A stretch of DNA of 64,000 nucleotides. It comes from a bacterium (GTDB taxonomy: Bacteria > Bdellovibrionota_C > UBA2361 > RFPC01). Numbering within the stretch: position 1 is the first letter of the stretch; every line of letters starts with the position of its first letter. The notes below the pieces were generated by a model. That model worked only from the letters and a program-made list of their open reading frames with translations. It was not told the DNA's origin and ran no database searches. Positions 18,234 to 39,765 of this stretch are shown here, in pieces. The DNA lies in the NCBI GenBank assembly GCA_009926305.1, contig RFPC01000005.1, positions 7,649 to 71,648 of the forward strand, in the 5' to 3' direction. A program made the translations under genes and the position numbers.

Positions 18234-18588
18234 AAGATAAAGAACGAGGCGCTGCGCTCAAACGCCCTCAAAAGGGGAGGCTGTATACCAGCTCTCCCCC
18301 GCGTCGTTGGACTCAATATTTGTCTTGCTTCTGACGGTACGTCACACGGTGTTGCCCTATACCGCTGAAGCCACTGAGCGGCTAAGAAGGGTCCGTGTTC
18401 CCGAGGCAGCCATCGGAGCCACCCTACCCTATTGATATCACTAGCTTTATCTGCGCTTTCTTGGCAACAACTCTTCCTAAAGCTCTTCGAGATATCGGTC
18501 GATCTAAAAGAGGGAACGTTTTCGAGTGGTTACAATTCCCTCTGGAATCCCACTGAGAGCAGAGGAAGACCCGGCAAGAAACCGCGTG

Positions 18589-20775
18589 ATGAATAAAAAG
18601 AATCAAAAAAACACCGTGGCGCACAGGGAGAAAGATGTCTCTCAGCAACCAACAAGCCAAGCGTCTTTCAATGGTGCTATCTCAAACATTCTTCAAGCAA
18701 TTTCTGACGGAAAAGCAGCAACAGAAATTTATGCCCAGATTGCCTCGCACCTTATCTCACGATCTCATGCCACAGGAGTATGTGTTTATGTGAAAGGCTC
18801 CGAAACAGGAACAAACGCGGAGAGTGTCTACTCTACTGGCGTTCTTGATTATCAAAAACCATTGATCACCGAGACTGAATCGCTGCAAAAACAGAGACCA
18901 CCACATTATGTTTTCCCTTTGTATCACGGAGACGAATGGATCGGTGCTGTAGTGATCCAGAGTTCAGAGGAATTGAAGACTGATACTCTCACCCCTCTCA
19001 TTCAGTGCTGTTCAACGGCTTACATCCATAAAAAGTCATGGGCAGAGAATCAGCATCTTCAAGAGAGGTTACAAATCCTGAATTCCCTCAATGAGATTCT
19101 TATCCACAACACGGGCCTTGAACGGCTCATGAAAGGTTTGGTCCGTGAAAGCGCCTTTAACTTTTCAGCGGACATCTCGGTTATCTATCTCTGTAATCCT
19201 CTGCAAAATTCACTCGAACTTACGGGTGCCTATGGCTGCAATCCCAAACAGATTCCGTCGACCATATCACAACATGAAGGGCTTATTGGACAGGTGATGA
19301 GCACAGGAGGTCAACTCAGTATTAGCGATCTCACAAAACATAAGAATCATAAGATCAATTATCTTCAAAAACTAGGAGTTCTATCACTCCATATATGCTG
19401 TCTTGAGGTACAAGAGAAAATTCTGGGAACAATGATTGTCGGATTTCGCCGGCAACATGCTTATGATGCTCAAGAGGTCATTCGATTCGAAGAATTCTGT
19501 AGGGGCACCGCCCTTGCGATTAGCAACAGCATCGCTCAAACACAACTCAAAGCGTATACAGAAAGACTTGAAGAGCTCGTAGAAAAAAGGACGGCTGAAT
19601 TAGAAATTCAAACCGATAAAGCGAAGCAAGCAAACGAGGCAAAGTCTCACTTCCTTGCAAATATGACTCATGAGCTACGTACTCCAATAACGGCTATTCT
19701 TGGATACTCAAGCATAATGAATGATGAAATATTAGGAGAGGTCACCCCGCAACAACGGGAAGGGCTTTCTGCAATCATTCGATCCAGTGAACATCTCAAA
19801 AGCCTTATTGATGACGTCCTCAATCTTGCGCGGGTGGAAGCTGGCAAGGAAGAGGCTAAGATCGTTCCCCTCTCACTTCGTGAAATGCTAGAAAATGCGT
19901 ATCAGCTCATGAAACAAAGTGCTTTTGAAAAAGGAGTTACGTTACGAGACCTCGACTTGTCTGAGGAGCTAAGCGACTTGGAGTTCTTGTGTGATCGTAA
20001 GCATTTTCAACAGATTCTCATAAACCTCGTTTCTAATGCTATTAAATATACTCCAGCAGGAGGTAGCGCCTGGATTGAGGCACGACAAGTCGAGGAAATG
20101 ATTGAGATATCAGTGCATGACACTGGTGTGGGACTAAGCGATCAAGAGAAGTCAGATATATTTGAACGGTTTAACCGAACTGGAAATCCATATAGCCAGC
20201 AACAGGTGGGAACTGGGCTTGGGCTAGCCCTAACCAAAAAGCTCGTAGAGCTCAATATGGGAGAGATTCGAGCCGAAGACAATCCTGGCGGCGGTTCACG
20301 TTTCATACTCACCTATCCGACAAGCCACAGCCACTATCAAGCAAGTGAGACAGAGAATCCTGAAGCTCAAGCCATGACGAAACTTGATGGGCTCTCGATT
20401 TTGGTTGTTGATGATCATAGCGACACAAGAAATATTCTAGAGAATATTTTACATGCAGCTGGTGCAATCGTAGAGGTCAGAGAAACGGTCGATTCTGCTC
20501 GACAGGTACTCAAAGATTTCCAGCCAGATGTCCTGCTTACTGAGATTTCGATGCCAGGAGAAAGTGGCCTTGAGCTCATAAAATTTGTTCGAGCAGCAGG
20601 AGAGGACTCACGCCAAATCCCGATCGTTGTCTTAAGCTCTCGAGCCTTTGATACTGATCAACTCGCCGCCTTCGGTGCCGGAGCAAACGCATTCTACCCA
20701 AAGCCTTTTCGACCTAACGATCTCCTTGAGGTTATTCGGGAATTGACCCTCCAATATGCAATCACAGAAGGATAA
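18589..20775 (+). CDS. Hybrid sensor histidine kinase (GAF-like N-terminal domains, HisKA, HATPase_c, C-terminal receiver)
   Basis: H-box HELRTP, G-box GTGLGLAL, and a receiver with the LVVDDH...D(V)LLTE...PIVVLS pattern. An upstream GTG at 18526 is an alternative start. Confidence 0.85.
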   Translation: MNKKNQKNTVAHREKDVSQQPTSQASFNGAISNILQAISDGKAATEIYAQIASHLISRSHATGVCVYVKGSETGTNAESVYSTGVLDYQKPLITETESLQKQRPPHYVFPLYHGDEWIGAVVIQSSEELKTDTLTPLIQCCSTAYIHKKSWAENQHLQERLQILNSLNEILIHNTGLERLMKGLVRESAFNFSADISVIYLCNPLQNSLELTGAYGCNPKQIPSTISQHEGLIGQVMSTGGQLSISDLTKHKNHKINYLQKLGVLSLHICCLEVQEKILGTMIVGFRRQHAYDAQEVIRFEEFCRGTALAISNSIAQTQLKAYTERLEELVEKRTAELEIQTDKAKQANEAKSHFLANMTHELRTPITAILGYSSIMNDEILGEVTPQQREGLSAIIRSSEHLKSLIDDVLNLARVEAGKEEAKIVPLSLREMLENAYQLMKQSAFEKGVTLRDLDLSEELSDLEFLCDRKHFQQILINLVSNAIKYTPAGGSAWIEARQVEEMIEISVHDTGVGLSDQEKSDIFERFNRTGNPYSQQQVGTGLGLALTKKLVELNMGEIRAEDNPGGGSRFILTYPTSHSHYQASETENPEAQAMTKLDGLSILVVDDHSDTRNILENILHAAGAIVEVRETVDSARQVLKDFQPDVLLTEISMPGESGLELIKFVRAAGEDSRQIPIVVLSSRAFDTDQLAAFGAGANAFYPKPFRPNDLLEVIRELTLQYAITEG

Positions 20776-22339
20776 ACGTCAGATGAAGCCGAATATACCA
20801 AATCCTCAATCAACGTACTCATCCTCAGATTTCTTAAAAAAACTGAAGGGCGCTCTGGGAAAGGATGGAGATTTCCCCGCAAGCGCCCGGCTAGTGAGTC
20901 AAATACAAGATATTACCTCGCGCCCAGAGACTACTACCCAACAAGTGGCAGAACTCATTCTGCGGGAACCTACACTGGGAGCTCGAGTGCTCCATCTTGT
21001 AAATAGCTCCTTCTATGGGAGAAGCAAACCAATACTCACCGTGAGCCAAGCAGTCATACAGATTGGCATGCGCCCGATTGCGGAGCTGTGTACGAACCTT
21101 GTCCTCTTGCAGAAATTCATCCCGCTCACCCGACGAAGTGGACCCTTTGCCCAATGTTTTCAAAGAACCATCACCACTTCTCTTTTAACGAGCATGATTG
21201 CAACAGAGTCGAGGGAAGCAAGCCCTCACTCGTCTTCCAGAACTTCGGATTCTGCGCATCAAGGAAGAAACGAGGCTGCTTATCTGGCGGGTACATTTGG
21301 TGAGTTGGGCCTCCTGCTCATCTCTTTCTATTTTCCGAAGCTATTTGATTCAGCAAAAAACAGAGCAGCATCAAAAGGAATTACCATCTCGAAAGGCATA
21401 CAAGAGCTCGTAGGACTGACTCCTATTGAAATCAGTCTTGAAGTATTACAAGAGCTCAATCTTCCGACCGAATATCAGTCCATACTCCAAACAACCTCTT
21501 CCTTAGAACGGGCGGCTCTATTGCCCGGTGAAAAAGCACAGAAAGAGATGGAACGTATCTTATCAACAGGACCATCGGGCGAGCTTGCCCAAGCGCTCTT
21601 TGCAGGAGGAGCACTCGCTGATGCCTTCTCCGGGGAGGACCCATTAAAGCAACTTGAGACTGCCATAATCGAAATTGATAAGATTCTCCCGCTTCCAAGC
21701 ACTCTCCTTACCGATTCAGTTCAGAGCTTCATAGAGTGCTACGATCAGTATTGCTCATCCATGGAGGTTGCTTTACCACCACTCCCAGATGATGTTGTGA
21801 ACATGAATGTTTCACTGAGCGCTGAATCAGACAAAGAATCAATCTCTCCCGAAGCGAGTAGTGAGGATCTGTCGCAGTTCATTGTAGAAGTACGTACGGC
21901 CGTCGAACAACACGAACCTCTGTCGTCCATTATCACAACAGTGATGGAAACACTGGCATGGAGCCTAAAATTCGAAAGAGTGCTTCTCCTTTTATTCGAC
22001 AAGAAAAAGCAGAATCTCACCGGACGAATGGCACTCGGAGATATCCCCGATTTTGAACCGAAGCAGTTCGTACGCCCCTTTGATTCAGAACAACCAACAG
22101 ACAACTGGTCAATAGCGATTGCAGAAAATCGCCTTGTCTTTACGGGCGAGCCCTTACTCTCTGGTGGAAGGAGTTTTGTACTTATGCCAGTGGGTTTTGA
22201 TAACAGGCGCGTAGGCTTAATCTACGGAGATAGAGTTTGCGACCAGAAATCAGAGAAGGTATCCGAGCAAGAGCGTGGTGCCTTACAGGTCCTGATGGAG
22301 CTTCTCAATAGAGCAATTGCTTTAAAAAACGACGGATAG
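20756..22339 (+). CDS. HDOD domain signalling protein with C-terminal GAF-like domain
   Basis: N-terminal HDOD-like region (ELILREPTLGARVLHLVNSSFY). Overlaps the kinase stop by 20 nt; an alternative ATG lies at 20783. Confidence 0.65.
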   Translation: MQSQKDKRQMKPNIPNPQSTYSSSDFLKKLKGALGKDGDFPASARLVSQIQDITSRPETTTQQVAELILREPTLGARVLHLVNSSFYGRSKPILTVSQAVIQIGMRPIAELCTNLVLLQKFIPLTRRSGPFAQCFQRTITTSLLTSMIATESREASPHSSSRTSDSAHQGRNEAAYLAGTFGELGLLLISFYFPKLFDSAKNRAASKGITISKGIQELVGLTPIEISLEVLQELNLPTEYQSILQTTSSLERAALLPGEKAQKEMERILSTGPSGELAQALFAGGALADAFSGEDPLKQLETAIIEIDKILPLPSTLLTDSVQSFIECYDQYCSSMEVALPPLPDDVVNMNVSLSAESDKESISPEASSEDLSQFIVEVRTAVEQHEPLSSIITTVMETLAWSLKFERVLLLLFDKKKQNLTGRMALGDIPDFEPKQFVRPFDSEQPTDNWSIAIAENRLVFTGEPLLSGGRSFVLMPVGFDNRRVGLIYGDRVCDQKSEKVSEQERGALQVLMELLNRAIALKNDG

Positions 22340-28414: not shown

Positions 28415-29152
28415 CTATGCAGCTTGATTATCGAGCGCCTGCTCGCTTGCATACCGAGACCGCTTCTTTCTGCGCTGAATTTTCCTCATCTCTTGTAGGC
28501 TCGCTCCAGCAGAAGGTCTATCGTCACGCTCAAGGCTCTGTTCGAGTTCAATTTGCAGATTCTCAAGCGCTTTTTTCTTTACGCGAGAGATGTGACACCT
28601 GCTGTACCCCAATGAACTGGCAATCTTCATCAACTGCTCGCCTTGAAGAAACAGACGCTCAATTACTTCTCGCTCTAATGGATCTAGTCGCGTACATGCG
28701 CTCTTGCTCAGTTCAATCAACTCTTTTTGAAGCAAAAGGTCGTCTGGGTTACGCTGATCAGTACCAGAAATGGCCTCCACTACATCAAGTGCCGTAATGG
28801 TCTTTGGCTCTTCACCCTTCTTCCCTTCTATCTCCTGACCAGGTATAAAATTTGCCTGTGCTGCTGCAGTCACGGTACGAATCAAATTCCCCTTCAAATG
28901 ATAGTATAAAAACGTCATGAAGCTGGCCCCTTTTTCGGGATCAAATCGTTGCACAGCCTCACAAAGAGACAGGTCTACAACACTATCAACTTCTTCAAGA
29001 TCAAGACGTGCCTGCCACCTTCTCAAAATACTCCGTCCCAGCTTCCGGGCTTTGATTCGATACTCTAAAATCATTTCGTCGTTGAGAGCCTGCTCATTTA
29101 CCGTTCCCTTCTTTGTCTTCTGTGAACCTTTTCGAGCCTTAACCTTTGTCAT
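28415..29152 (-). CDS. Sigma-70-family sigma factor, group 3 / FliA(sigma-28)-like
   Basis: Region-2-like segment (RFDPEKGASFMTFLYYHLKGNLIR) and a region-4 HTH (LMKIASSLGYSRCHISRVKKKAL), 245 aa. Confidence 0.78.
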   Translation of the reverse strand: MTKVKARKGSQKTKKGTVNEQALNDEMILEYRIKARKLGRSILRRWQARLDLEEVDSVVDLSLCEAVQRFDPEKGASFMTFLYYHLKGNLIRTVTAAAQANFIPGQEIEGKKGEEPKTITALDVVEAISGTDQRNPDDLLLQKELIELSKSACTRLDPLEREVIERLFLQGEQLMKIASSLGYSRCHISRVKKKALENLQIELEQSLERDDRPSAGASLQEMRKIQRRKKRSRYASEQALDNQAA

Positions 29153-29448
29153 GCCACTTCTCCTGTAGAACCTACTGTACTGTTGATTTCAAATAACCTT
29201 TCCTGATCAGTCTTACTGAGCTCTTCGATACATGAGACCAGATCTAACAACCCTGCTTGGAGTAATAGTCGAGTCTGTGTAGCTGGAACATCCTCAACGA
29301 GCGTAAGCAGCTCTTGAATCGTATCCAGTGCCTGGTATCGTGTTTCTTTTATCGAATTCACTTGATTTGCTCCTTCAACTCGCCTTGCCCCTAAACAAGG
29401 AAAGACGGTGTGTGTCAGAGGCATCCCCTGACAAACACTGGTCAGCAC
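29149..29448 (-). CDS. Hypothetical 99-aa protein, translationally coupled upstream of the sigma factor (possible anti-sigma/FlgM-like)
   Basis: 4-nt overlap with the sigma-factor start. No motif recognised; the anti-sigma suggestion rests on position and size only. Confidence 0.35.
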   Translation of the reverse strand: MLTSVCQGMPLTHTVFPCLGARRVEGANQVNSIKETRYQALDTIQELLTLVEDVPATQTRLLLQAGLLDLVSCIEELSKTDQERLFEINSTVGSTGEVA

Positions 29449-29617
29449 TAAAGGACTAGCCGCTTCATAAAAAGTGATAACATATTGTATTTATTCTCTT
29501 TATTTATGGCTTTTTTCAGTCACTCGCAAAGAAAGGCGACTTGGTTCAGAAGAGGTTTGTAAGGATGTGTCGGGTATGCGAAAAACAGGGACAGGCTAGC
29601 AAAATAGGCACCATCAA

Positions 29618-30424
29618 ATGAGTGAAGATACCCCGCAGGATGACCAAGAGGGTTTATCCATCGAAGAAGCAAACGCACTTGTCGAGGAACATCGAGGCTG
29701 GGCTGAGAGTATAGCTCGGTCGGTTGCTCGTGGTTGGAACCTTGACTGGCAAAATGACGGACTCGATGGAGCTGCGATGGAGGCTCTGATCTTTTGCTCG
29801 AGACGGTTTAATCCAGAGCGTGGCATCCCGTTTCGTGGCTATGCAAGACGAAGAATACATGAAGCCTCTACTGAAGCAGCCCGAGTATCAAAAGGCTGGA
29901 CACGCTCGGGGTCTGATACACAGTTTGAACGACTTGCTAAAGAGGTATCGATTGAACTTTTTGAACTCTTTCCCGAACTTCGCAGTGGAGCTATTCCTAT
30001 GTCGCTTGACCAAGAGGAAGGCGATAAGGCAATGCGCGCGAGCATCAGACAACTCTTAATCGGCGCAACTCTCGTCACCACGCGACAGGGGCTCGCCTCA
30101 GCTTCGCTCGATGATATCGTTGATACGAAACGAATGGTGACCTTCTTAGCGCATCTGGAAGTAATTCATCAAATAATCATATGGCGAATGTATTGGCATG
30201 GGGATTCAATGAGAGCAATCGCATCCGAGTGGGAAATGGACGAGCTGAATGTAATCCGAGAACATAAGGCCCTTGTCGACCATTTACAGAGGGCAATCGA
30301 AAAAAACAGCTCCTTTGAACCGCTAAAAGTCCGACCTGCACTCAGGCCGCTCTCTATTGAAATGAAACAAAGAAAGCAGGCGGGCCCCTTTACAGAACTC
30401 TATGCGCAAGGACAGAAAACGTAA
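29618..30424 (+). CDS. Second sigma-70-family sigma factor, FliA/group-3-like
   Basis: Region-2-like segment (RFNPERGIPFRGYARRRIHEA) and a region-4 HTH (MRAIASEWEMDELNVIREHKALVDHL), 268 aa. Confidence 0.72.
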   Translation: MSEDTPQDDQEGLSIEEANALVEEHRGWAESIARSVARGWNLDWQNDGLDGAAMEALIFCSRRFNPERGIPFRGYARRRIHEASTEAARVSKGWTRSGSDTQFERLAKEVSIELFELFPELRSGAIPMSLDQEEGDKAMRASIRQLLIGATLVTTRQGLASASLDDIVDTKRMVTFLAHLEVIHQIIIWRMYWHGDSMRAIASEWEMDELNVIREHKALVDHLQRAIEKNSSFEPLKVRPALRPLSIEMKQRKQAGPFTELYAQGQKT

Positions 30425-30497
30425 TGGCCTTTACGCCTCAGGGAAATATCAAAAACCAGTAAGGGAAAAAATCCAGAATGACTGTAGGAAAACAAAA

Positions 30498-30848
30498 ATG
30501 AGCGATGAAAAAGACAAGAAAAACGTCAAGGGAATCAGTAAAACACAGAAGACCACTTCCGTATCAAAAGTTGATAACATTGAAGAGGTAAAGAAAGTTG
30601 GAAAAACAACTGGTGTAAAACGCTCCGGCAAAACTCCGCAGGCTGGCGACAACCTGCAACGCCTGCGATTTGAAGACCGCGAGAAACTTTTAGGAATGGT
30701 TGATGAAGAAGCAAAAAACCTATTCCGCTCAAGCAAGTTGCCAGAGGAGCAAAAACGCCTTATCCGAGAAGCAGTAAAAATGGCGATTGATTCAGCACTT
30801 GTTGAGGAAGATGATACCAAGAAGACAAAAGAGGACGAAAAGAATTAA
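30498..30848 (+). CDS. Lysine/glutamate-rich small protein (possible histone-like/nucleoid-associated or secreted protein)
   Basis: AGGAAA RBS 7 nt before ATG 30498. Highly charged, low-complexity 116-aa product. Confidence 0.4.
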   Translation: MSDEKDKKNVKGISKTQKTTSVSKVDNIEEVKKVGKTTGVKRSGKTPQAGDNLQRLRFEDREKLLGMVDEEAKNLFRSSKLPEEQKRLIREAVKMAIDSALVEEDDTKKTKEDEKN

Positions 30849-30911: not shown

Positions 30912-31448
30912 TTAGGAAGTCTTTGAAGAACCGCCTGTTAGCCGTTCCTCGAAACGCAGCACCTGAGCTTCGTATAGCTGCCGAAGCTCAGGTCGCATTC
31001 GCTCACTAGCAGCTAGTCGATCTGAAACTTCTCCCAGATATGTTCCCCCAGTCTGAAAGTCTTTTAATTGAAAATGCGCCAAGACGAGGAATAACAAGGC
31101 TTCCATCGAAGAGTTCCGTAATTCAAGAGCTCGATGAGCAGCCGAGATAGTCTCCCCGTAATCTTCCCTCATCAAAGAGGCATACGCTATTACCAGCCAT
31201 GCATTTACATGCGTCGGCTCTATCGACACGAGCCCTCTGGCGACTCTCTCAGCAGTGGCAATCTCTCCGCTTTCTATAAATATTCGACTCAGGGAATAGA
31301 GTGCATCCAGCTCTGTTGTGGAATAACCATGGCGAACAATCGCTCGATCCCCCCGAGGCGAGAGTGCTTTTGACGATTCCATCGGTTGATTACCACCACT
31401 TACTTCCTCATCCGAAATAGTGGCCTCGGACTTGTTCTCATTTGCCAT
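30912..31448 (-). CDS. TPR-repeat protein resembling class II type III secretion chaperones (SycD/LcrH/Scc2-like)
   Basis: Three TPR-like helical pairs in about 178 aa. Lies at the distal end of the sct export-apparatus operon. Confidence 0.55.
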   Translation of the reverse strand: MANENKSEATISDEEVSGGNQPMESSKALSPRGDRAIVRHGYSTTELDALYSLSRIFIESGEIATAERVARGLVSIEPTHVNAWLVIAYASLMREDYGETISAAHRALELRNSSMEALLFLVLAHFQLKDFQTGGTYLGEVSDRLAASERMRPELRQLYEAQVLRFEERLTGGSSKTS

Positions 31449-31707
31449 GATCATCTTCTTGTAAAGCAATCCAATCAATCGCAATCTTTAACATATCACG
31501 CTCATCACGCCTCTGTCGCTCTGATTCTCCCATAGTGACCCGCGAATTACTTGCGCCCTCCACCTCTTGCTCGACCCGTTCCATTCGCGCAAGTAACGCT
31601 GCACGTAACTTTGGAAGCTCACCAGCATTCTTGCCTTGCGGGACGAGCGCCAACAAGGGGAGTCGTGTTTCATCATGAAACATGAGTTCCTCAATTCGAC
31701 TTTTCAT
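31438..31707 (-). CDS. Hypothetical 89-aa charged helical protein inside the T3SS operon
   Basis: ORF between the 4-TM protein and the TPR chaperone, overlapping the chaperone start. Confidence 0.35.
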   Translation of the reverse strand: MKSRIEELMFHDETRLPLLALVPQGKNAGELPKLRAALLARMERVEQEVEGASNSRVTMGESERQRRDERDMLKIAIDWIALQEDDHGK

Positions 31708-31750
31708 CTTCTTCCCTTTGAATTACCGATTCGCAGTATTCTTTTTAATC

Positions 31751-32293
31751 TTAGCTATCACTTGGCCCCTTCAGAAAGGACTTTTGTATAAACACAAGAA
31801 GAATATTTAAAAATCCTAAACTTACCACCAAGATCATAGCAACTAAAAACAGATAGGAGTACTCTAGGATTTCGCCTAAATCCCCGTCAGACCGATATAA
31901 AAGTGACTCTTGAATGAGCTTGGGGAAAAGAAAATAGACTGCTGCAAAAAAAGCTGAAATGAACACTCCACTGAACAGGAAGTACGCTCCTAAGAGAAAG
32001 AACGTGCTCCAATAGGTGCGTGACTGACTCTCTCCTGATGACCAAATAAAAGTATGAGCAGCTTTAGAAAACAGGACTATTGGGACAATTAGTAAGGGAA
32101 GAGCAATGACCAACACTATCTCTCGACCACATGCTGATAAACACTCTGCAAGATGACCCTCTAGACACGGCTTTATGGTGAGTGAGAGCTCTTTGAGGAG
32201 AGCCTGATAAACGAAAGGGGAAAAGCAAAAAAACGCCACTGAGCAGAGTGTCAGTGTTGCTACGGCATTCCTAAAAGCTGATTCAGACTTCAC
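31751..32293 (-). CDS. 4-TM membrane protein occupying the SctU position but lacking SctU/FlhB motifs
   Basis: Four hydrophobic helices. No FSxK..NP..G.KR loop and no NPTH cytoplasmic domain. Confidence 0.45.
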   Translation of the reverse strand: MKSESAFRNAVATLTLCSVAFFCFSPFVYQALLKELSLTIKPCLEGHLAECLSACGREIVLVIALPLLIVPIVLFSKAAHTFIWSSGESQSRTYWSTFFLLGAYFLFSGVFISAFFAAVYFLFPKLIQESLLYRSDGDLGEILEYSYLFLVAMILVVSLGFLNILLVFIQKSFLKGPSDS

Positions 32294-32308
32294 TCGATTA
32301 TTATCCTA

Positions 32309-32926
32309 TTAACCGGGCAGTAATAGCTCGTGGAGAAAATATTGGCTTATCGATTGACAAGAAATGGCCAGAAGCAAGAGCACCAGAGGAACAACTGCAA
32401 TCTGATACGTGATGGAAAAGCTAAGCTCTACTCTATTTCTTCTTACTATTAGGGGGATACTCACGAGGTACACAATGAAAGCGAGAAGTGCGTATACAAG
32501 TACATAGGCACAACCCACAAGAATGCCCCACTTCAGAACCATTGAAGTGAAATATGAAAATACAGAGAGAAGAACTTCGGCACGGTGCCGCATGTATATC
32601 TCCACAATGCCATGGAGCACGTCTTCACTGAGCAGCTCCGGCAGTAAGAACATCATCACGACACACGGAAGCCACCTGTAACACATGTGATCTTCAAAAA
32701 GGTCCCGAAGTCCAACCCTCTCGAAAAGACAACTTATAAGAAGCCAAGTGAGCGGGATAGCACACAGTGCAACGACCGCACACAATAACCCCAAAAAGGA
32801 AAAGGGGACCTGAATACTCACGAGGAGAAGACATAGGACAAGACACGGCGCTGCAATGACCGTCATGACTGGAGAGAGGACACAACCGAGAAAGAGTCCA
32901 GCCCCTGCTATTGCAAACTCAGTCAT
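32309..32926 (-). CDS. sctT: Type III secretion export apparatus protein SctT (FliR family), short form
   Basis: Polytopic 205-aa membrane protein immediately downstream of sctS. The call rests on synteny and topology. Confidence 0.5.
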   Translation of the reverse strand: MTEFAIAGAGLFLGCVLSPVMTVIAAPCLVLCLLLVSIQVPFSFLGLLCAVVALCAIPLTWLLISCLFERVGLRDLFEDHMCYRWLPCVVMMFLLPELLSEDVLHGIVEIYMRHRAEVLLSVFSYFTSMVLKWGILVGCAYVLVYALLAFIVYLVSIPLIVRRNRVELSFSITYQIAVVPLVLLLLAISCQSISQYFLHELLLPG

Positions 32927-32954
32927 CCTACGACACCCTGCTCACAATCCGAGC

Positions 32955-33200
32955 CTATCCTACCACCAGGTAGAGCGTTCTCGTCTCTTCGATAAAAAAA
33001 TTAATCATAGGGGCTCCCAGCAAAATTAATGCAAAAAGCGCCCCGATAACTCTTAGTGCATAGTTTAAGGTGTAATCTTGGATCGAGAAGAAGCCCGTTA
33101 AGAGATAGCCCAATAGCCCAAATCCAACGATACATCCCGTTACGGGAACCCCCACTATGAGAAACATCCGAATTATCGTTGAGAATACATTCAATTCCAT
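32955..33200 (-). CDS. sctS: Type III secretion export apparatus protein SctS (FliQ family)
   Basis: 81 aa with two TM helices. SIQDYTLNYALRV matches the FliQ QINEMTLSFIPKI block, and ETRTLY matches YVRTLF. Confidence 0.7.
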   Translation of the reverse strand: MELNVFSTIIRMFLIVGVPVTGCIVGFGLLGYLLTGFFSIQDYTLNYALRVIGALFALILLGAPMINFFIEETRTLYLVVG

Positions 33201-33205
33201 GACAT

Positions 33206-33868
33206 TTATCCTGAAATGTAATCTCCGGCTAGCCTCTGGATTAACATCCCCCAACCATCGACAACCAGAAAAAGAAGAAGCTTCATTGGCAATGAAAAAC
33301 ATAAAGCTGGCAACTGTGTCATTTGCAACAACTGCATCACGTGCACCACGAGGAGATCAATGATCACAAATGGCAAAATGAAGAGAACTCCAAGCTGAAA
33401 TGCGCCCTCGAGCTCATCCAAGAGAAAACTTACAAGTACAGGATAAAACCCTGACTGCTTCCCTATCTGCTCAGGGTTCGGTGCCGATTCCGTCATTCCC
33501 GCACTACTCTTCACTGGCGCTTGAAACTTATCTCGAAGTTCAGACTGCAGCCGTGATATCTCCTCCCTGCGTTCGGGATCCGTTCTTTGCTCAAGAAACG
33601 GCACAATACGTTGCTCAAGCATACTCTCTCTTTGTTCTGGAGCAGAGAGGGTTGTCATCAGATTACCTACAGGGACAACAGAATCAACCACAAAGAGAGC
33701 GAGAACGGCTGAAAAAATCATAACAACCACGCCCACGGTAGCGCCATGAAACCCGAGGCCAATACGAAAAATTTGAAGAGTCGTAAAACTCTTTAAGAAT
33801 CCCCCCGTAAGAAGGACTAAAATGATGAGAGCTATCTGATAACTCGCTGCGTTTGCATCAATTCCCAT
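33206..33868 (-). CDS. sctR: Type III secretion export apparatus protein SctR (FliP family)
   Basis: C-terminal PFVIIDLLVVHVMQ...LPMKLLLFLVVDGW matches the FliP signature PFLVIDLVVASVLM...LPFKLLLFVLVDGW. Confidence 0.85.
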   Translation of the reverse strand: MGIDANAASYQIALIILVLLTGGFLKSFTTLQIFRIGLGFHGATVGVVVMIFSAVLALFVVDSVVPVGNLMTTLSAPEQRESMLEQRIVPFLEQRTDPERREEISRLQSELRDKFQAPVKSSAGMTESAPNPEQIGKQSGFYPVLVSFLLDELEGAFQLGVLFILPFVIIDLLVVHVMQLLQMTQLPALCFSLPMKLLLFLVVDGWGMLIQRLAGDYISG

Positions 33869-33975
33869 GAAGGGTATTGTGAAGAAAAGAACGTCATTTC
33901 ACTAGCCGCTATTTTCAGACGCTCATCGACTGGGAAGACCGTTCGAACGGTCTCTTTCATGATTATCTCTATCCG

Positions 33976-35022
33976 CTATTGCTCTCCGATGACCTTTACA
34001 AAGAGCTGAGACTCATAGGCAACCAGAATCCCATGTCCGACCTTTTTATGCGCGACAGAAATATGAATTTTAGGCTGTTTCGCAGAAGATGCGAGCTTAT
34101 GAAGCGCACCCGGCTGGGAAAGAAGAGCACTCTCAGCTTTTGAAAGTTCTATCTCCTCTAGCTCAAACGTTACAGAAGTCATTCCATCAGCATTCGCGAT
34201 GCCTTCGTTCGCTTCTCCTCTTGCTTGAAAAACGAGTTGATCATCGTGAGTGAAAAGTGATCCCTCAAGCCATGGCTGCTCATCCATGAGCAACACGACT
34301 GAATCGCTACCACCAAAATTGATCGGAAGCGTCTTGCCAGGAACAAGGCTATCACCTACCTCCGAGGGGAGAAATGCAGTGCTCCCAAAAACAACCCTCA
34401 CACGTGCCCTCTCCTCAGCAGAAGGTATTCCTTTTAATATTTGTGTAATCCACAATTGATCGAGCCTATCCATCAGCCCTTGGCTTATTCCTATAACAAG
34501 CGAAAGCTCCTCGCCATTCAGCCGAAAATCAAGCCGAACGCCACCAACGCAAGCCTCTGAAGGAGCACTAACATCACTTTGAAAGCGGAAGACGCCCCCT
34601 TCGTTCGCACTCCAAGATGACGCAAGGCTCGTCATGAATCTTCTTGCAAAATATTCTATCATCAGATGTTTAGCGGTAAGGGATGCGGCTGGAGCTTGAG
34701 TTCTCGTAATACATTCAGACAAGGACCTCGGAATAAAAAGAGAAACAGTCTCTCCATCAAGACTCCCATGAAAGGCGACTCCCTCTCCGGCATCGAGATC
34801 TATGAGCGGAGTAGTTCCGCACTTTTCATGATGTATATCGAAGGTGTGAAAAAGCGGTAGCCAATGAGCAGTAAATCCAGGAAACCATACCTCTGGTTGG
34901 GACCGAAGAAAGCCTCTTGAGAAACGGATATCCTCAGCACTTACCGCTGATAGCTCAGTTAACGGATCCCATGCCCGAAAGTCACTCTCCCCGTACTGTT
35001 GTTCATCCGACGCAATCGACAT
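33976..35022 (-). CDS. SctQ-like cytoplasmic-ring component (C-terminal SpoA/FliN-like domain); SctL not excluded
   Basis: C-terminal approximately 70 aa resemble the SpoA fold pattern (ELSKAESALL...IHISVAHKKVGHGILVAYESQLFVKVI). Lies directly upstream of sctR as in yscQRST. Confidence 0.4.
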   Translation of the reverse strand: MSIASDEQQYGESDFRAWDPLTELSAVSAEDIRFSRGFLRSQPEVWFPGFTAHWLPLFHTFDIHHEKCGTTPLIDLDAGEGVAFHGSLDGETVSLFIPRSLSECITRTQAPAASLTAKHLMIEYFARRFMTSLASSWSANEGGVFRFQSDVSAPSEACVGGVRLDFRLNGEELSLVIGISQGLMDRLDQLWITQILKGIPSAEERARVRVVFGSTAFLPSEVGDSLVPGKTLPINFGGSDSVVLLMDEQPWLEGSLFTHDDQLVFQARGEANEGIANADGMTSVTFELEEIELSKAESALLSQPGALHKLASSAKQPKIHISVAHKKVGHGILVAYESQLFVKVIGEQ

Positions 35023-35051
35023 GAATTACTCTTCTAATATTCTCTAAACCC

Positions 35052-35312
35052 TCATTCCTGCAAACGTTCATCCTTCACATCAGCAGTTCGACTTTGCAAC
35101 TCTTCTAATGCACGTCTCAGCGCGTCGCCCGCTAAAATGTTCCTGAACTCTGGCGATGCGGCCACAAAATCTTTCGCTGCCTTTGCCAGCTCTTCACCTG
35201 CTAACGAATCATTGTCAAGATAAAGCTCGGCCTCATGTCCATCGAGCAGCACTGCTATTGCTACCATTGCTCGCTGATGCGCTGAAAGGGAACGAAATTT
35301 CTCGAGCTTCAT
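35052..35312 (-). CDS. Hypothetical 86-aa helical protein coupled to sctJ
   Basis: 4-nt overlap with the sctJ stop. No motif recognised. Confidence 0.35.
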   Translation of the reverse strand: MKLEKFRSLSAHQRAMVAIAVLLDGHEAELYLDNDSLAGEELAKAAKDFVAASPEFRNILAGDALRRALEELQSRTADVKDERLQE

Positions 35313-36217
35313 AGTTGCGACCTCCGATCATCATCACGAACATCGAACGGTTGTAACTGTAAGGGCTCGCCGTTACGGAACGAATCAAGGGAAGACATTT
35401 GGCCCCGAGAGGCAGTGGTAATGACGCCAAACCAATATCCCCCGAAAATCCCTGCAACAGCAACAAGCACCAAGACACCAAGAAGTGAGAGCACGATAGC
35501 TGGATAATCTGCTGCTGCCACTTTCCAGCCAAAGAATAATTCAACCCAATCGAACTTCTCTCCGTCGAGGCTAGCCTCACTAACTCCCTCCCCCTCTGGC
35601 TCATGAGAAAAAATCGCCAGATGAATCCTGTCGGCCTCTAGCTCTGGAATAATTGACTGTAGTAGGGCCTGTATTTCCGAGCGAGGAGCGAGAGAGGCAT
35701 CTTTTACTTTCAAAACGACCGATGCTCCGCGATCTTCCTTCACGACTTGAAGATCATCTGTATTCGTCTTCTTTGCCGGTCTCTCAGAATGGAGTCGCAA
35801 CACGACTCGAGCAGAGGCGACATCAGGAAGATTCTCTAAGAGGGACTCTATCTGTAGTGAACGCGCAAAATCTAAGCGCACCGCTTCTACCATGCGCGAA
35901 TCCGGAAGAAATGAACTGGTCGAGAGGGTGGAGAGAACTTCACTGCGAGAGGACTCAGGAATTCCCTTCTCGTGCAAGATTCGGATGGCCGTAGAGAAAT
36001 CTCTGGGAGCAACCTCCACCAAGAAATTGCCAACTCCTCTTCTCTTCCGAGTGAATGAAGCTTCAATGCCGTTCTTGCTCAGCACTGCTACCACTTCTCG
36101 AGCTTGGTCTTGAGAAATGTCCTCAGCAACGGGAACGTCCGAACAGCCCATCATCAAGAGGCTCATGACCACAGCAGCAAAACAATAAACACACAGTCTT
36201 TTATTCACGTGAGTCAT
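35309..36217 (-). CDS. sctJ: Type III secretion inner-membrane ring lipoprotein SctJ (YscJ/PrgK/EscJ family)
   Basis: Lipobox LLMMGC followed by a YscJ-like N-domain (ISQDQAREVVAVLSKNGIEA...AIRILHEKGIP) and a C-terminal TM helix. Confidence 0.8.
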   Translation of the reverse strand: MTHVNKRLCVYCFAAVVMSLLMMGCSDVPVAEDISQDQAREVVAVLSKNGIEASFTRKRRGVGNFLVEVAPRDFSTAIRILHEKGIPESSRSEVLSTLSTSSFLPDSRMVEAVRLDFARSLQIESLLENLPDVASARVVLRLHSERPAKKTNTDDLQVVKEDRGASVVLKVKDASLAPRSEIQALLQSIIPELEADRIHLAIFSHEPEGEGVSEASLDGEKFDWVELFFGWKVAAADYPAIVLSLLGVLVLVAVAGIFGGYWFGVITTASRGQMSSLDSFRNGEPLQLQPFDVRDDDRRSQL

Positions 36218-36262
36218 GGGGTTTTCCTCTAAGCCTCTCGAACGTAACGTGAGAGCGGTATC

Positions 36263-37375
36263 CTAACCTCGCGGTAAAGATGGAATAAGCGTCACCAGAA
36301 ACTCTTGCTCACCAAAACGTACCCAGTCTCCATGACCGAGTATGATGGCTTCTTCTTCTTTCCGATAGATGGCATCACCTTCCCGACGGACAAAAACACC
36401 TGTCTCACTCATGAGATCCTGTACAAGCAATCCATACTCATCAGAAAGTGTCATGAGCGCATGTGGTGTTGAAACAGAGGGATGATCAAGGACGAAATCT
36501 TTATCTTTCAGCGGTGTGCGACTGACAAAGAACTTCCCCTCTCTCAGCTCGTAGCCTACGCCGTTGGCAACCGAAAAACTGACAAGCCACCCATGCAATA
36601 ACCCTTGATTATCTTGAGCTTGCTGAGCTGCTACAGCTCCCCTAGCAGAGACGCCCTGTTCTCCCATCGCTCCATCTTGGTTTCTGCGCGGCGCTGATTC
36701 CTCTCGCCGCCGTCCTTGTCTCCTTTGTTCGCGCCACATACGAGACGCCTCTCCTTCAAAGGTTGCTTCAGCTTCATGAGAAGACTCATCGGGTGTCTTT
36801 TGTTTCGCTCTGCCACCGAAAGAGAGCCCTTTCTTGGACGAGCCTCGCTCCATTCTTACTCGCGGAGCAACAGATTCAGTTGATTCTTCCACTCGCGGCT
36901 GACGCGGCGCTTGAGTCACTAACGGTGCCTCATCATCATCGACAACATCATCGAAATCCTCTTCTAAAAACCCTGCTTCGTCCCCCGCCTCGAAAATGTC
37001 AGAGTCCATTTCCTCCACCAGGTCTTCCTCTTCCTCCTCCTGAATCGCTTCTGGATAATCACTCTCTTCTCTTATCGGCTCACTCGCAGCAAGCTCCTCG
37101 TCCTCTTCATCTTCAAAATCCTCAAGATATGCTCCAAGCGGATCATCAAAATCATCCTCAGCTTCAGCGGGAGCGCTTTCAAGGGCAGACTCAGGAGTTG
37201 AAAAGTCATCTTCCTCTGCACCTGATGCCAGCTCATCCTCTTCGAGTCCAGCTCCACACATTCTGCAACGAGTCGACACCGCCGGCACAAGACTCCGACA
37301 CGATGGACAACGAACAAAGGTTAATTCAGTGCTATCAGTGGCCATTTTTTTCTCCTTTAGATAAAAACCCTTCAA
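36263..37375 (-). CDS. Zinc-ribbon / acidic-linker / C-terminal FHA-domain protein
   Basis: CPSCR-x11-CRMCG zinc ribbon, about 130-aa D/E-rich linker, and a C-terminal FHA (GxxFVSRTP...HALM...LLVQDLMSETGVFV). Coupled by 4 nt to the upstream gene. Confidence 0.7.
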   Translation of the reverse strand: MKGFYLKEKKMATDSTELTFVRCPSCRSLVPAVSTRCRMCGAGLEEDELASGAEEDDFSTPESALESAPAEAEDDFDDPLGAYLEDFEDEEDEELAASEPIREESDYPEAIQEEEEEDLVEEMDSDIFEAGDEAGFLEEDFDDVVDDDEAPLVTQAPRQPRVEESTESVAPRVRMERGSSKKGLSFGGRAKQKTPDESSHEAEATFEGEASRMWREQRRQGRRREESAPRRNQDGAMGEQGVSARGAVAAQQAQDNQGLLHGWLVSFSVANGVGYELREGKFFVSRTPLKDKDFVLDHPSVSTPHALMTLSDEYGLLVQDLMSETGVFVRREGDAIYRKEEEAIILGHGDWVRFGEQEFLVTLIPSLPRG

Positions 37376-38706
37376 AAAAGTAACGAAACAACAAGCATTG
37401 ACGCTACAAGTAATGCGAGCGCTACAAGAATTCCTGTTACGAGAACTCCTACCCGTTCATACGAACCAAGCGCTAAGAATCCTGAAACAAAACGATTCGG
37501 TCTCGTATTCATCTCGAACTGGGAGAGCGCCTCTTGAGGAACTCCAGGGGCAGCCAATGTTTGGCGGCTCGGCACTACTTCTCGCGAATCTCTCTCTTCC
37601 CCCTCTTTCTGAGTAAAGGTAGAAGGAGCACCATTGCTCTCAAGGAACATCTCTTCATGCTCTTCCGAAAAACAGATGGCAACGGTAATACCACCGCCAA
37701 AATTCAACACACACGGGCTATTCTCGAGGTGAACGGATTCTCCTTGCGTTAGCACCCCACCATCATACGCGAGTCCATTCATACTGAGGTCCGTGATGAG
37801 AATATCCTCAAGGCTGATAAATTCAATAGTTGAGTGTTTCCGCGACACATGCGGCGCACCAAGCCAAAGATCACTTGAGGGATCTCTGCCAATCCTGAGG
37901 GGCTTTCCTTCTTGAATCAGCAATTTCTGCGGACGAGCGACTTCTGAGAGTGACATCAGCAGCGGATAGCGTTCCTCTGGAAGTATCTGCAGATCAACCT
38001 CTGCAGTTTGACGGGGCACTGAGACTTGCTCTTCTTGATCGATTGCATACGCAACAATGCTTCTCCCAATGATAATTGGCTTTCCAGGAGGAATCTGATT
38101 TTTCCCTGAAACTTGCTGTGCTCCCACAAAGGTTCCATTTGTAGAACCGACATCCTCAATAAAAAATTTCCCAGCTTCATACGTCACATTGGCATGCCTT
38201 GCAGATACATCAGGAGCGTCCAAGCGAAGTGCATTATCTCGATCTCTACCAATCGTCAGCGGAAGATCTGGCGAAAACGAAATAGTGACTGGAGCATCTC
38301 CGCTTACCGCCAGCGCAGGGAAATACGGCGCCGGGTTTTCACACGCTCTGCGTAAAATGTGAGCTGCTACCTTATCAAGGGCATCTCCTCGCATAGAGCA
38401 AAGGTCAAGATCGAGTGCAGTGATAGAAAGCTGTATGGAGCCCAGGTTCAGGCTCGCTTCCCCATCATATTCCCGATCGAGGTAAGCAGGGGTTTCAACT
38501 CGCAAGTGAGAATGCGAAATAAGCGGCTGAGTTCGGAAAGTCCGGCCAATACCTCTATACAGATGAAGTTCATACGGCAGTTCAGCAAGTTCATCGATTA
38601 GCACGTGGGCGTAGTCGCTGGCTCCAATGACCGCGTGTGACCTGCGGACGAAGACCGTTTCAGTATCGGCCCCATCACCATTAAAAGTTATTTCTAACGA
38701 AAACAT
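37372..38706 (-). CDS. Triple-FHA-domain protein with C-terminal TM tail anchor (SctD-like cytoplasmic module, atypical)
   Basis: Three FHA cores (e.g. LTIGRDRDNALRLDAPDVSARHANV...EDVGSTNGTFV and LRIGRDPSSDLWLGAPHVSRKHSTI...DLSMNGLAYDG) and a terminal hydrophobic helix (VLVTGILVALALLVASMLVVSLLF). Confidence 0.75.
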   Translation of the reverse strand: MFSLEITFNGDGADTETVFVRRSHAVIGASDYAHVLIDELAELPYELHLYRGIGRTFRTQPLISHSHLRVETPAYLDREYDGEASLNLGSIQLSITALDLDLCSMRGDALDKVAAHILRRACENPAPYFPALAVSGDAPVTISFSPDLPLTIGRDRDNALRLDAPDVSARHANVTYEAGKFFIEDVGSTNGTFVGAQQVSGKNQIPPGKPIIIGRSIVAYAIDQEEQVSVPRQTAEVDLQILPEERYPLLMSLSEVARPQKLLIQEGKPLRIGRDPSSDLWLGAPHVSRKHSTIEFISLEDILITDLSMNGLAYDGGVLTQGESVHLENSPCVLNFGGGITVAICFSEEHEEMFLESNGAPSTFTQKEGEERDSREVVPSRQTLAAPGVPQEALSQFEMNTRPNRFVSGFLALGSYERVGVLVTGILVALALLVASMLVVSLLF

Positions 38707-39013: not shown

Positions 39014-39382
39014 ATGACGAGACACAAGAAGATTCTCATTATCGATGACGACATGATCGCTCTAGACATTGTCGATCTTCTCTTCGAAGAGCATGGCTTT
39101 GAAGTTATTCGCAGCTCAGATGGCTGCCGCGCAATCTCTGCTATCGATGACACCGCACCAGACATCGTTTTGGTTGACTTGATGATGCCAAAGATGAGTG
39201 GTCAAGAGTGCATTCAAGCACTGAGAGCCAAAGGGCTAAACGTTCCAATCGTCGCCTTCACCGCTATTGATGATCCTGAAGTGCATGCGGATGTCGAAAC
39301 CCTCGGGGGGAGCCTCGTATTAACGAAGCCATGCAAACCATCACTCCTCTTGAAGGAGGTCGAAGCTCTTCTTGACGCTTGA
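39014..39382 (+). CDS. Single-domain response regulator (CheY-like receiver)
   Basis: KILIIDDD...DIVLVDLMMP...PIVAFTA receiver signature, 122 aa. Confidence 0.85.
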   Translation: MTRHKKILIIDDDMIALDIVDLLFEEHGFEVIRSSDGCRAISAIDDTAPDIVLVDLMMPKMSGQECIQALRAKGLNVPIVAFTAIDDPEVHADVETLGGSLVLTKPCKPSLLLKEVEALLDA

Positions 39383-39432
39383 GGCTAAAAAGGCTGTTCT
39401 CTCTTCTCTCAGTTACCCCAACCCTACGTGTT

Positions 39433-39765
39433 CTATTCATCCCAAGAGACCTGAAGCGCTATTCTCCCTATAAGAATTTGATCGCCATCCTGCAGCGGGT
39501 AAACTTTTCCCTCTTCAAGCTGCACTGCTCCATTCAAGATTGTGCCATTCAGACTCCCCATATCGATAATCGAGAGTTCATCACCCGACATCTCAATGGT
39601 GGCATGTTTCCGAGAAACCCGAGCATCCTCATCAATCGCGTCCAAATCTATTTCTGGAAACACTCCGGCAGTCGGATCCCACCGTCCAATGAGATTTTGA
39701 CCCTCTCGAATTGGATACTGCTTCTTTTTGCGCTTGCCATCCCATATCTGTAAATAAACGGACAT
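39433..39765 (-). CDS. Standalone FHA-domain protein
   Basis: FHA core LIGRWDPT...VSRKHATIE...IIDMGSLNGT, 110 aa. Confidence 0.75.
   Translation of the reverse strand: MSVYLQIWDGKRKKKQYPIREGQNLIGRWDPTAGVFPEIDLDAIDEDARVSRKHATIEMSGDELSIIDMGSLNGTILNGAVQLEEGKVYPLQDGDQILIGRIALQVSWDE

Follow-up and report, generated by a model that had tools for sequence, protein, structure and literature searches.

Divergent FliA-like sigma factor paralogs and their small partner genes form a conserved cassette beside an injectisome-type secretion locus in uncultured Bdellovibrionota

We describe a conserved gene cassette in a 64-kb stretch of DNA from a bacterium of the Bdellovibrionota (contig RFPC01000005.1; the whole stretch is called the window below), in which two divergently transcribed sigma factors of 245 and 268 amino acids (aa), named here sigma A and sigma B, border an operon of type III secretion system (T3SS) genes. 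Sigma A and sigma B are distant, anciently duplicated paralogs of the sigma-70 family. In the window each of them has a small neighbour, Up70 in front of sigma A and p116 behind sigma B. The gene identities, the paralogy, the synteny, the corrected gene boundaries and two promoter motifs were established by comparison with related loci. With slightly less than even confidence, we propose that these genes make up a conserved regulatory cassette of two FliA-descended sigma factors with their own promoters and small partners, usually bordering an injectisome-type T3SS cluster of divergent orientation, in which p116 would restrain sigma B; the pairing of the sigma factors with the motifs, the anti-sigma functions, the secretion and the T3SS control are what we infer within this proposal.

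Conservation of the divergent sigma factor pair

Two metagenomic contigs and 80 species-representative genome loci were compared by tblastn, and about 20 kb per genome was examined. The locus of the window is denoted WIN and the relatives are numbered L001-L082. The sigma A and sigma B open reading frames (ORFs) are separated by 465 bp (Table 1). The divergent pair was detected in about 70 of the 80 related genomes (species-level metagenome-assembled genomes, MAGs, of Bdellovibrionota), far beyond chance, and in nearly every locus with enough upstream DNA.

The T3SS core genes adjoin the cassette in 31 of the 44 loci that have at least 7 kb of flanking DNA. An earlier reading made from the sequence alone had listed three ORFs of 245, 99 and 268 aa, with the large pair divergent and bordering a T3SS locus. 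All three are placed as described there, and the T3SS genes at the border include those for SctD, SctJ, SctQ, SctR and SctS.

Identity and domain organization of the two sigma factors

Sigma A exceeds the Pfam cut-offs for Sigma70_r2 (25.1 bits versus 24) and Sigma70_r4 (31.4 versus 24.1), as well as the TIGR02937 cut-off (60.3 versus 42.9). It has 707 homologs, every one of them in uncultured Bdellovibrionota, Oligoflexia or 'Deltaproteobacteria' MAGs.

Sigma B was recognised by its profile and its fold. The profile of 58 sigma B orthologs aligned with the sigma A profile over the full length (hhalign, 96.4%, E 1e-9), the AlphaFold model is confident (predicted local distance difference test score, pLDDT, 86.8), and the top Foldseek matches in the PDB are all sigma factors, with 1rp3 (FliA/FlgM) first, followed by sigma-32, SigB and WhiG. 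On these three lines of evidence sigma B is most probably a sigma factor, and the claim of the sequence-only reading that the two proteins are alternative sigma factors and paralogs is supported. The sigma B family is the more conserved one (43-88% identity over 57 loci), has Trp-rich invariant positions and shares with FliA the region 2.3/2.4 pattern F..YA..RI..A...E..R....W. For the 622 homologs of sigma B no Pfam domain is precomputed, and NCBI names them 'hypothetical protein'.

The region 2/3/4 organization that had been attributed to both proteins is plausible for sigma B and does not hold for sigma A. In the sigma B model, sigma2 and sigma4 are separated by helices 103-117, 119-123 and 136-160, which would fit a sigma3-like region, and the C-terminus has two additional helices (residues 240-267), modelled with confidence. 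The AlphaFold2 model of sigma A consists of sigma2 (helices 17-102), a disordered linker and sigma4 (136-211). Since the gap between sigma2 and sigma4 is filled by disordered residues 104-115 and a single short helix (121-128), the model shows no full sigma3 domain, which is, as modelled, degenerate or absent in sigma A.

Two basic segments were observed in the sigma A family. A basic tail with the consensus RRKIHRRRPRS follows region 4.2 in all orthologs and is modelled as disordered, and most orthologs beyond the clade of the window have a K/R-rich N-terminal extension of 40-50 aa.

Relationship to the characterised sigma factor families

The best PDB profile match is FliA for both sigma A (E 5e-7) and sigma B (E 0.008), which together with the Foldseek results identifies FliA/sigma-28 as the nearest characterised relative of both proteins. 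Membership in the FliA/WhiG family, which the sequence-only reading had assumed, is not upheld by the family models: TIGR02479 gives 41.9 bits for sigma A and 25.0 for sigma B (cut-off 189.6), and the NF004572 scores are 26 and 14.5 bits (cut-off 378). The term FliA-like paralogs is thus right for the nearest relatives, and a FliA family assignment with the region 2/3/4 layout is not established.

We also considered that the two proteins could be stress factors of the SigB/SigF type, controlled by partner switching. The SigB/SigF/SigG model TIGR02980 is the second-best NCBIfam match of sigma A, and SigB tops its Foldseek list, in which only sigma factors were returned. The TIGR02980 score, however, is 50.2 bits against a cut-off of 234.35, the profile matches favour FliA over SigB/SigF, and neither the window nor its syntenic loci L001 and L002 contain a STAS protein, RsbW-like kinase or PP2C phosphatase. 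The scores and the gene context largely rule this reading out and make it extremely improbable.

The upstream gene Up70 is shorter than called

In the window, the TGA of the 99-aa ORF and the ATG of sigma A share 4 nt (ATGA), as had been noted; the length of the ORF, on the other hand, had to be corrected. The first 29 codons span a conserved promoter (motif A, described below), and the GTG start lies inside the -10 element GCTGACCAG, so that the predicted transcription start, near position 29431, falls behind that codon. The open frame of L004 and L005 does not include the promoter. Between L001 and L003, 14 nucleotide changes in the extension lead to 8 amino acid changes in 21 codons, versus 23 nucleotide and 7 amino acid changes in the 70-codon core. 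This substitution pattern of the extension resembles non-coding DNA, indicating that the 99-aa ORF was over-called.

The corrected gene, Up70, starts at GTG 29361, replaced by ATG in L001 and L003; GGAG precedes this start by 8 nt. It is under purifying selection (ratio of nonsynonymous to synonymous substitution rates, dN/dS, 0.11-0.22), and the encoded protein is acidic (isoelectric point, pI, 4.2) and probably helical. Of about 75 loci, only 16 contained Up70 by the family hidden Markov model (HMM), every time between sigma B and sigma A; hence it is not a universal partner of sigma A. By these sequence comparisons, Up70 is a real gene restricted to one clade. No match to Up70 was found in Pfam, NCBIfam or the PDB, and FlgM gave none at E<1 for the 16 Up70 homologs.

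The sequence-only reading had regarded this upstream ORF as a FlgM-like cognate anti-sigma factor of sigma A, exported by the T3SS. Several features agree with such a role: Up70 is co-transcribed with sigma A and coupled to it through the ATGA overlap in the window, it is always located between the promoter and sigma A, and it is a small, acidic, selected protein. However, sigma A is universal and Up70 is not, the coupling is not kept in other loci (usually a gap of 25-115 nt and no overlap), the long disordered N-terminal segment typical of FlgM is missing, and there is no homology to FlgM or any other family, nor to p116 by hhalign profile comparison. The argument from a FlgM-like size of 99 aa fails as well, because the gene has 70 codons. 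An anti-sigma function of Up70 is conceivable but conjectural; in the form of an exported, FlgM-like partner of sigma A we consider it unlikely.

The gene p116 behind sigma B is the better anti-sigma candidate

The sequence-only reading had placed the partner gene in front of sigma A and overlooked p116, which fits the FlgM analogy better. The start of p116 at M33 of the longer ORF is conserved and preceded by AGGA 8 nt upstream. In 64 loci p116 was found behind sigma B; the spacing ranges from -23 to +93 nt, and the genes overlap by 4 nt in 14 of these loci. Sigma B and p116, which make up a single operon, are kept together even in L073 and L077, rearranged loci in which one strand carries sigma A, sigma B and p116 in this order.

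Residues 1-58 of p116 are basic, rich in S/T/K/G/V, poorly conserved and probably disordered, and residues 59-116 are acidic, helical and conserved (..ER..L..MV.EEA.KLF....P......AVKMAID). This layout of a disordered N-terminal half and a conserved helical C-terminal half is that of FlgM, with no detectable homology. The family is sharply bounded: an exhaustive HMM search found 240 representative homologs, all of about 100-140 aa, and the 165 matches of a word-indexed search are all hypothetical proteins. The universal linkage to sigma B and the FlgM-like layout make p116 a better candidate anti-sigma factor than Up70 and, by analogy, a possibly exported one.

Two promoter motifs in the cassette

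Promoter motifs were derived by k-mer enrichment over 71 sigma B-sigma A intergenic regions, and the intergenic DNA of the window and its closest relatives was aligned. Motif A is found on the sigma A strand: behind an A/T-rich tract comes cTGAAGCR-N14-GCnGAyrAGrGGGTG with fixed spacing. It was present in 40 of the 71 loci under a strict filter. The position weight matrix (PWM) of motif A found 57 sites in 1.13 Mb of loci, 56 of them upstream of sigma A or Up70. In the window the A/T-rich stretch, the -35 element TGAAGC and the -10 element are all present. When the PWM was trained without the window, its copy scored 21.3, the next best position in the 64 kb 10.6 and the maxima of shuffled sequences 9.2 on average, making it the sole strong site in the window.

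Motif B, on the sigma B strand, is TWAAsGTT-N12-TGCCGATA, equivalent to TWAAG-N17-CCGATA, and is located 8-130 nt upstream of sigma B. In 31 of 73 loci its score exceeded the 99th percentile of the background. The motif is essentially the sigma-28 consensus and is very similar to TTAAG-N16-CCGATA, the FliA/attack-phase consensus that was mapped by experiment in Bdellovibrio bacteriovorus (PMC3627812). Sigma-28-type elements comparable to TAAA-N15-GCCGATAA, which the sequence-only reading had proposed to look for upstream of the T3SS genes, do occur in the system as motif B; at the T3SS structural genes in the DNA of the loci they were not found.

The two motifs have the -10 core GCnGAyA in common and differ mainly in the -35 element (TGAAGC versus TWAAG), as expected for two diverged FliA-like sigma factors. 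Other conserved elements were observed upstream of sigma B. A subclade of the Up70 loci has TTTTTATAAGC-N4-TGGATTTACA in common, and WIN, L001 and L003 share conserved blocks of no recognised promoter class.

Inverted repeats (CTGACA/TGTCAG/CTGACA), conserved in WIN, L001, L003 and L005, overlap the -10 element of motif A and the 5' leader. A role as an operator or as a leader hairpin/attenuator is possible; the predicted hairpin is modestly stable in comparison with shuffled sequences (z = -1.9).

A metagenome scan with motif A was uninformative. For 117 of the at least 120 matches listed there was no sigma A gene in the locus, and many of the listed matches are evidently coding sequence, for example ATGAAGCAG...AGCGGAAAAGGGGG, which encodes the P-loop '..SGKGG'.

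Proposed regulation and alternative explanations

In the proposed cassette the two sigma factors would read two promoter classes, most simply each its own promoter. Alternatively, an ordinary FliA or sigma B might read motif B and start a cascade. In the relatives that have motif B, the sigma B-p116 operon would be driven through this motif by sigma B itself or by ordinary FliA, and sigma A would be driven from motif A, by itself or by sigma B, potentially resulting in a switch of T3SS-associated genes that works by feedback or as a cascade. Sigma B would be kept inactive by p116 until the latter is removed, perhaps through T3SS export as for FlgM, and Up70 could be a clade-specific accessory modulator of sigma A. 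The most specific version of this model, in which p116 is a T3SS-exported anti-sigma factor for an injectisome-dedicated, FliA-derived sigma factor, giving a sigma-28/FlgM-style checkpoint with split promoter specificities (TWAAG...CCGATA and TGAAGC...GCnGAyAAG), is a doubtful one in our estimation.

A number of results weigh against the proposed cassette function. Sigma B is below the sequence cut-offs (Sigma70_r2 18.3 versus 24 bits, TIGR02937 31.1 versus 42.9). For p116, FlgM was not matched in Pfam at E<1 with 47 homologs, no FlgM chain in the PDB was matched at E<10 by the profile of p116 or by that of Up70, and the Pfam, PDB and HMM searches gave no anti-sigma or other homology for either protein. 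Motif B is missing upstream of sigma B in the window (best PWM score -5.6) and from all 16 Up70-bearing loci, so that the 31 motif B loci and the Up70 loci do not overlap. No locus had either motif upstream of its T3SS structural genes in the available DNA, and no convincing motif or shared k-mer was detected upstream of sctD and other T3SS genes in 8 usable upstream regions; synteny is therefore what points to T3SS control. Motif B could also be read by a canonical FliA encoded elsewhere in the genomes. In about one quarter of the loci the cassette is located beside housekeeping genes instead of the T3SS.

Some of these observations would be explained if the cassette were a lifestyle or developmental switch, like that of the Bdellovibrio attack phase, with a main regulon other than the T3SS and an adjacency that is inherited gene order. 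The resemblance of motif B to the attack-phase FliA consensus, the T3SS structural genes free of both motifs and the loci among housekeeping genes all agree with this. The adjacency to the T3SS in 31 of 44 loci, however, persists at divergence down to about 45% identity, and adjacency kept across such divergence usually reflects functional linkage; moreover, the lack of motifs at the T3SS genes refers to about 20 kb per genome. We give such a switch a low probability.

The low domain scores of sigma B, its Trp-rich invariant positions and its two extra C-terminal helices could also suggest a sigma-derived regulator or decoy that binds RNA polymerase. p116, whose gene lies between sigma B and a T3SS chaperone gene, would then have no part in transcription and be a substrate or a structural accessory of the T3SS. 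This explanation appears quite unlikely to us: the full-length fold of sigma B matches sigma factors only, the protein is highly conserved and keeps the region 2.3/2.4 pattern, and p116 follows sigma B even where no T3SS is adjacent.

Comparison with known regulatory systems

The association of an alternative sigma factor and a small partner with a type III apparatus is known. New are the two FliA-like paralogs, the unannotated cryptic sigma family, the two promoter classes, the orphan partners and the large uncultured clade. A literature search for such a module in connection with the T3SS of Bdellovibrionota or Oligoflexia found no description of it.

The cassette resembles the FliA/FlgM system in several respects. 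FliA is the best PDB profile match for both sigma factors, a sigma-28-type -10 element (GCCGATA / GCnGAyAA) is present in both promoter classes, a small partner (p116, about 100 aa) whose N-terminal half is probably disordered is encoded in the same operon, and a type III export apparatus is encoded next to the cassette. Unlike that system, it has two paralogs instead of one, both below the FliA/WhiG cut-off, sigma A has no sigma3, p116 and Up70 have no FlgM homology, the -35 element of motif A is TGAAGC and not TAAA, and the neighbouring apparatus is of the injectisome type (SctJ, FHA-SctD) and not flagellar.

Chlamydia is non-flagellate, has an FHA-SctD-type T3SS, retains sigma-28 (RpsD/FliA) and couples T3SS chaperones to the regulation of RNA polymerase, one of them being Scc4, which has a T3SS chaperone fold. 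Its sigma-28 is recognised as a member of the FliA family (NF004572), whereas the sigma factors of the cassette are far below the cut-off of that model, and p116 and Up70 are small orphans, unlike Scc4.

HrpL-type sigma factors of the extracytoplasmic function (ECF) group are encoded with the non-flagellar T3SS of Pseudomonas syringae and Erwinia. They read a bipartite hrp box promoter and are activated by sigma-54 enhancer-binding proteins, and no adjacent small partner like p116 or Up70 is known. The cassette is similar in having a dedicated alternative sigma factor beside a non-flagellar T3SS, and differs in that the HrpL group is ECF.

Injectisomes evolved from flagella, and their known regulators are AraC-type activators, ECF sigma factors (HrpL, BtrS) and two-component systems. 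We know of no injectisome with a circuit of the sigma-28/FlgM type, and of no injectisome in cultured Bdellovibrio.

The injectisome locus of Bordetella encodes its own alternative sigma factor, BtrS, and the anti-sigma factor BtrA, which is exported by the same T3SS (PMC10732220). By analogy, the same logic may apply to sigma B and p116, with the difference that BtrS is a group-4 ECF sigma factor and the cassette has two FliA-like ones. No sequence relationship to BtrA turned up, and no search was aimed at BtrA.

The FliA regulon of Bdellovibrio (PMC3627812) comes from the same phylum, has a consensus nearly identical to motif B and is a precedent for sigma-28-type regulators that take over non-flagellar programmes. 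It depends on a canonical FliA (bd3318), in contrast to the two divergent extra paralogs with partners beside a T3SS that are described here.

The retention of the cassette beside an injectisome-type cluster in hundreds of uncultured Bdellovibrionota would show how flagellar regulatory logic was kept or re-used. If p116 were an exported anti-sigma factor, the system would join flagellar and injectisome control as a regulatory 'missing link'. The analysis also brings to light a 622-member sigma family annotated as hypothetical, and the two defined promoter motifs are directly testable in a heterologous host.

The type III secretion locus and its surroundings

The T3SS operon (Table 1) encodes FHA-SctD, an FHA protein, SctJ, SctQ, SctR, SctS, a SctT-like and a short SctU-like protein, an 89-aa protein and a TPR chaperone, and the gene order is the same in L001 and L002. 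Yop-YscD_cpl and FHA exceed the Pfam cut-offs. The best family matches are of the injectisome type and not flagellar, with SctJ (TIGR02544, 82 bits, cut-off 162) and SctR (NF009438, 89 bits, cut-off 179, versus 71 bits for FliP) below the equivalog cut-offs. No SctV, SctN or SctC was found within the window.

Table 1. Coordinates of the cassette, the T3SS operon and neighbouring features in the window
Feature	Positions	Strand	Remarks
Sigma A, 245 aa	28415-29152	-	ORF list
Basic C-terminal tail of sigma A	28415-28500	-
ORF called as 99 aa	29149-29448	-	ORF list; GTG start
Up70, 70 aa	29149-29361	-	Corrected gene; 3' 70 codons of the 99-aa ORF
Inverted repeats	29408-29446	-	Overlap the -10 element of motif A and the 5' leader
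Motif A	29432-29475	-	Promoter of the Up70-sigma A operon
-10 element of motif A	29438-29446	-	GCTGACCAG
-35 element of motif A	29462-29467	-	TGAAGC
Sigma B, 268 aa	29618-30424	+	ORF list
p116, 116 aa	30498-30848	+	Start at M33 of ORF 30402-30848
T3SS operon	30912-38706	-	Pfam and NCBIfam matches
Protein in SctU/FlhB position, 180 aa	31751-32293	-
Two FHA proteins, 444 and 370 aa	36263-38706	-
CheY-like regulator and 124-aa orphan ORF	39014-39753	+
Hybrid kinase and HDOD protein	18526-22339	+

The membrane protein in the SctU/FlhB position has no visible C-terminal autocleavage (NPTH) domain, and its 219-aa homolog in L002 matches Pfam Bac_export_2; it may be a truncated or split switch protein. 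The operon is headed by two consecutive FHA proteins, a pair conserved in L001 and L002: the 444-aa protein contains two FHA stretches and Yop-YscD_cpl, and the 370-aa protein a C-terminal FHA.

The opposite border of the T3SS has a gene for a single-domain CheY-like response regulator, divergent from sctD and followed by an orphan ORF. The regulator is 58-84% identical in L002 and L008 and may provide another input for regulation. At a distance of 6-10 kb from the cassette, a hybrid GAF-histidine kinase-receiver protein and an HDOD protein are encoded, both syntenic in L001.

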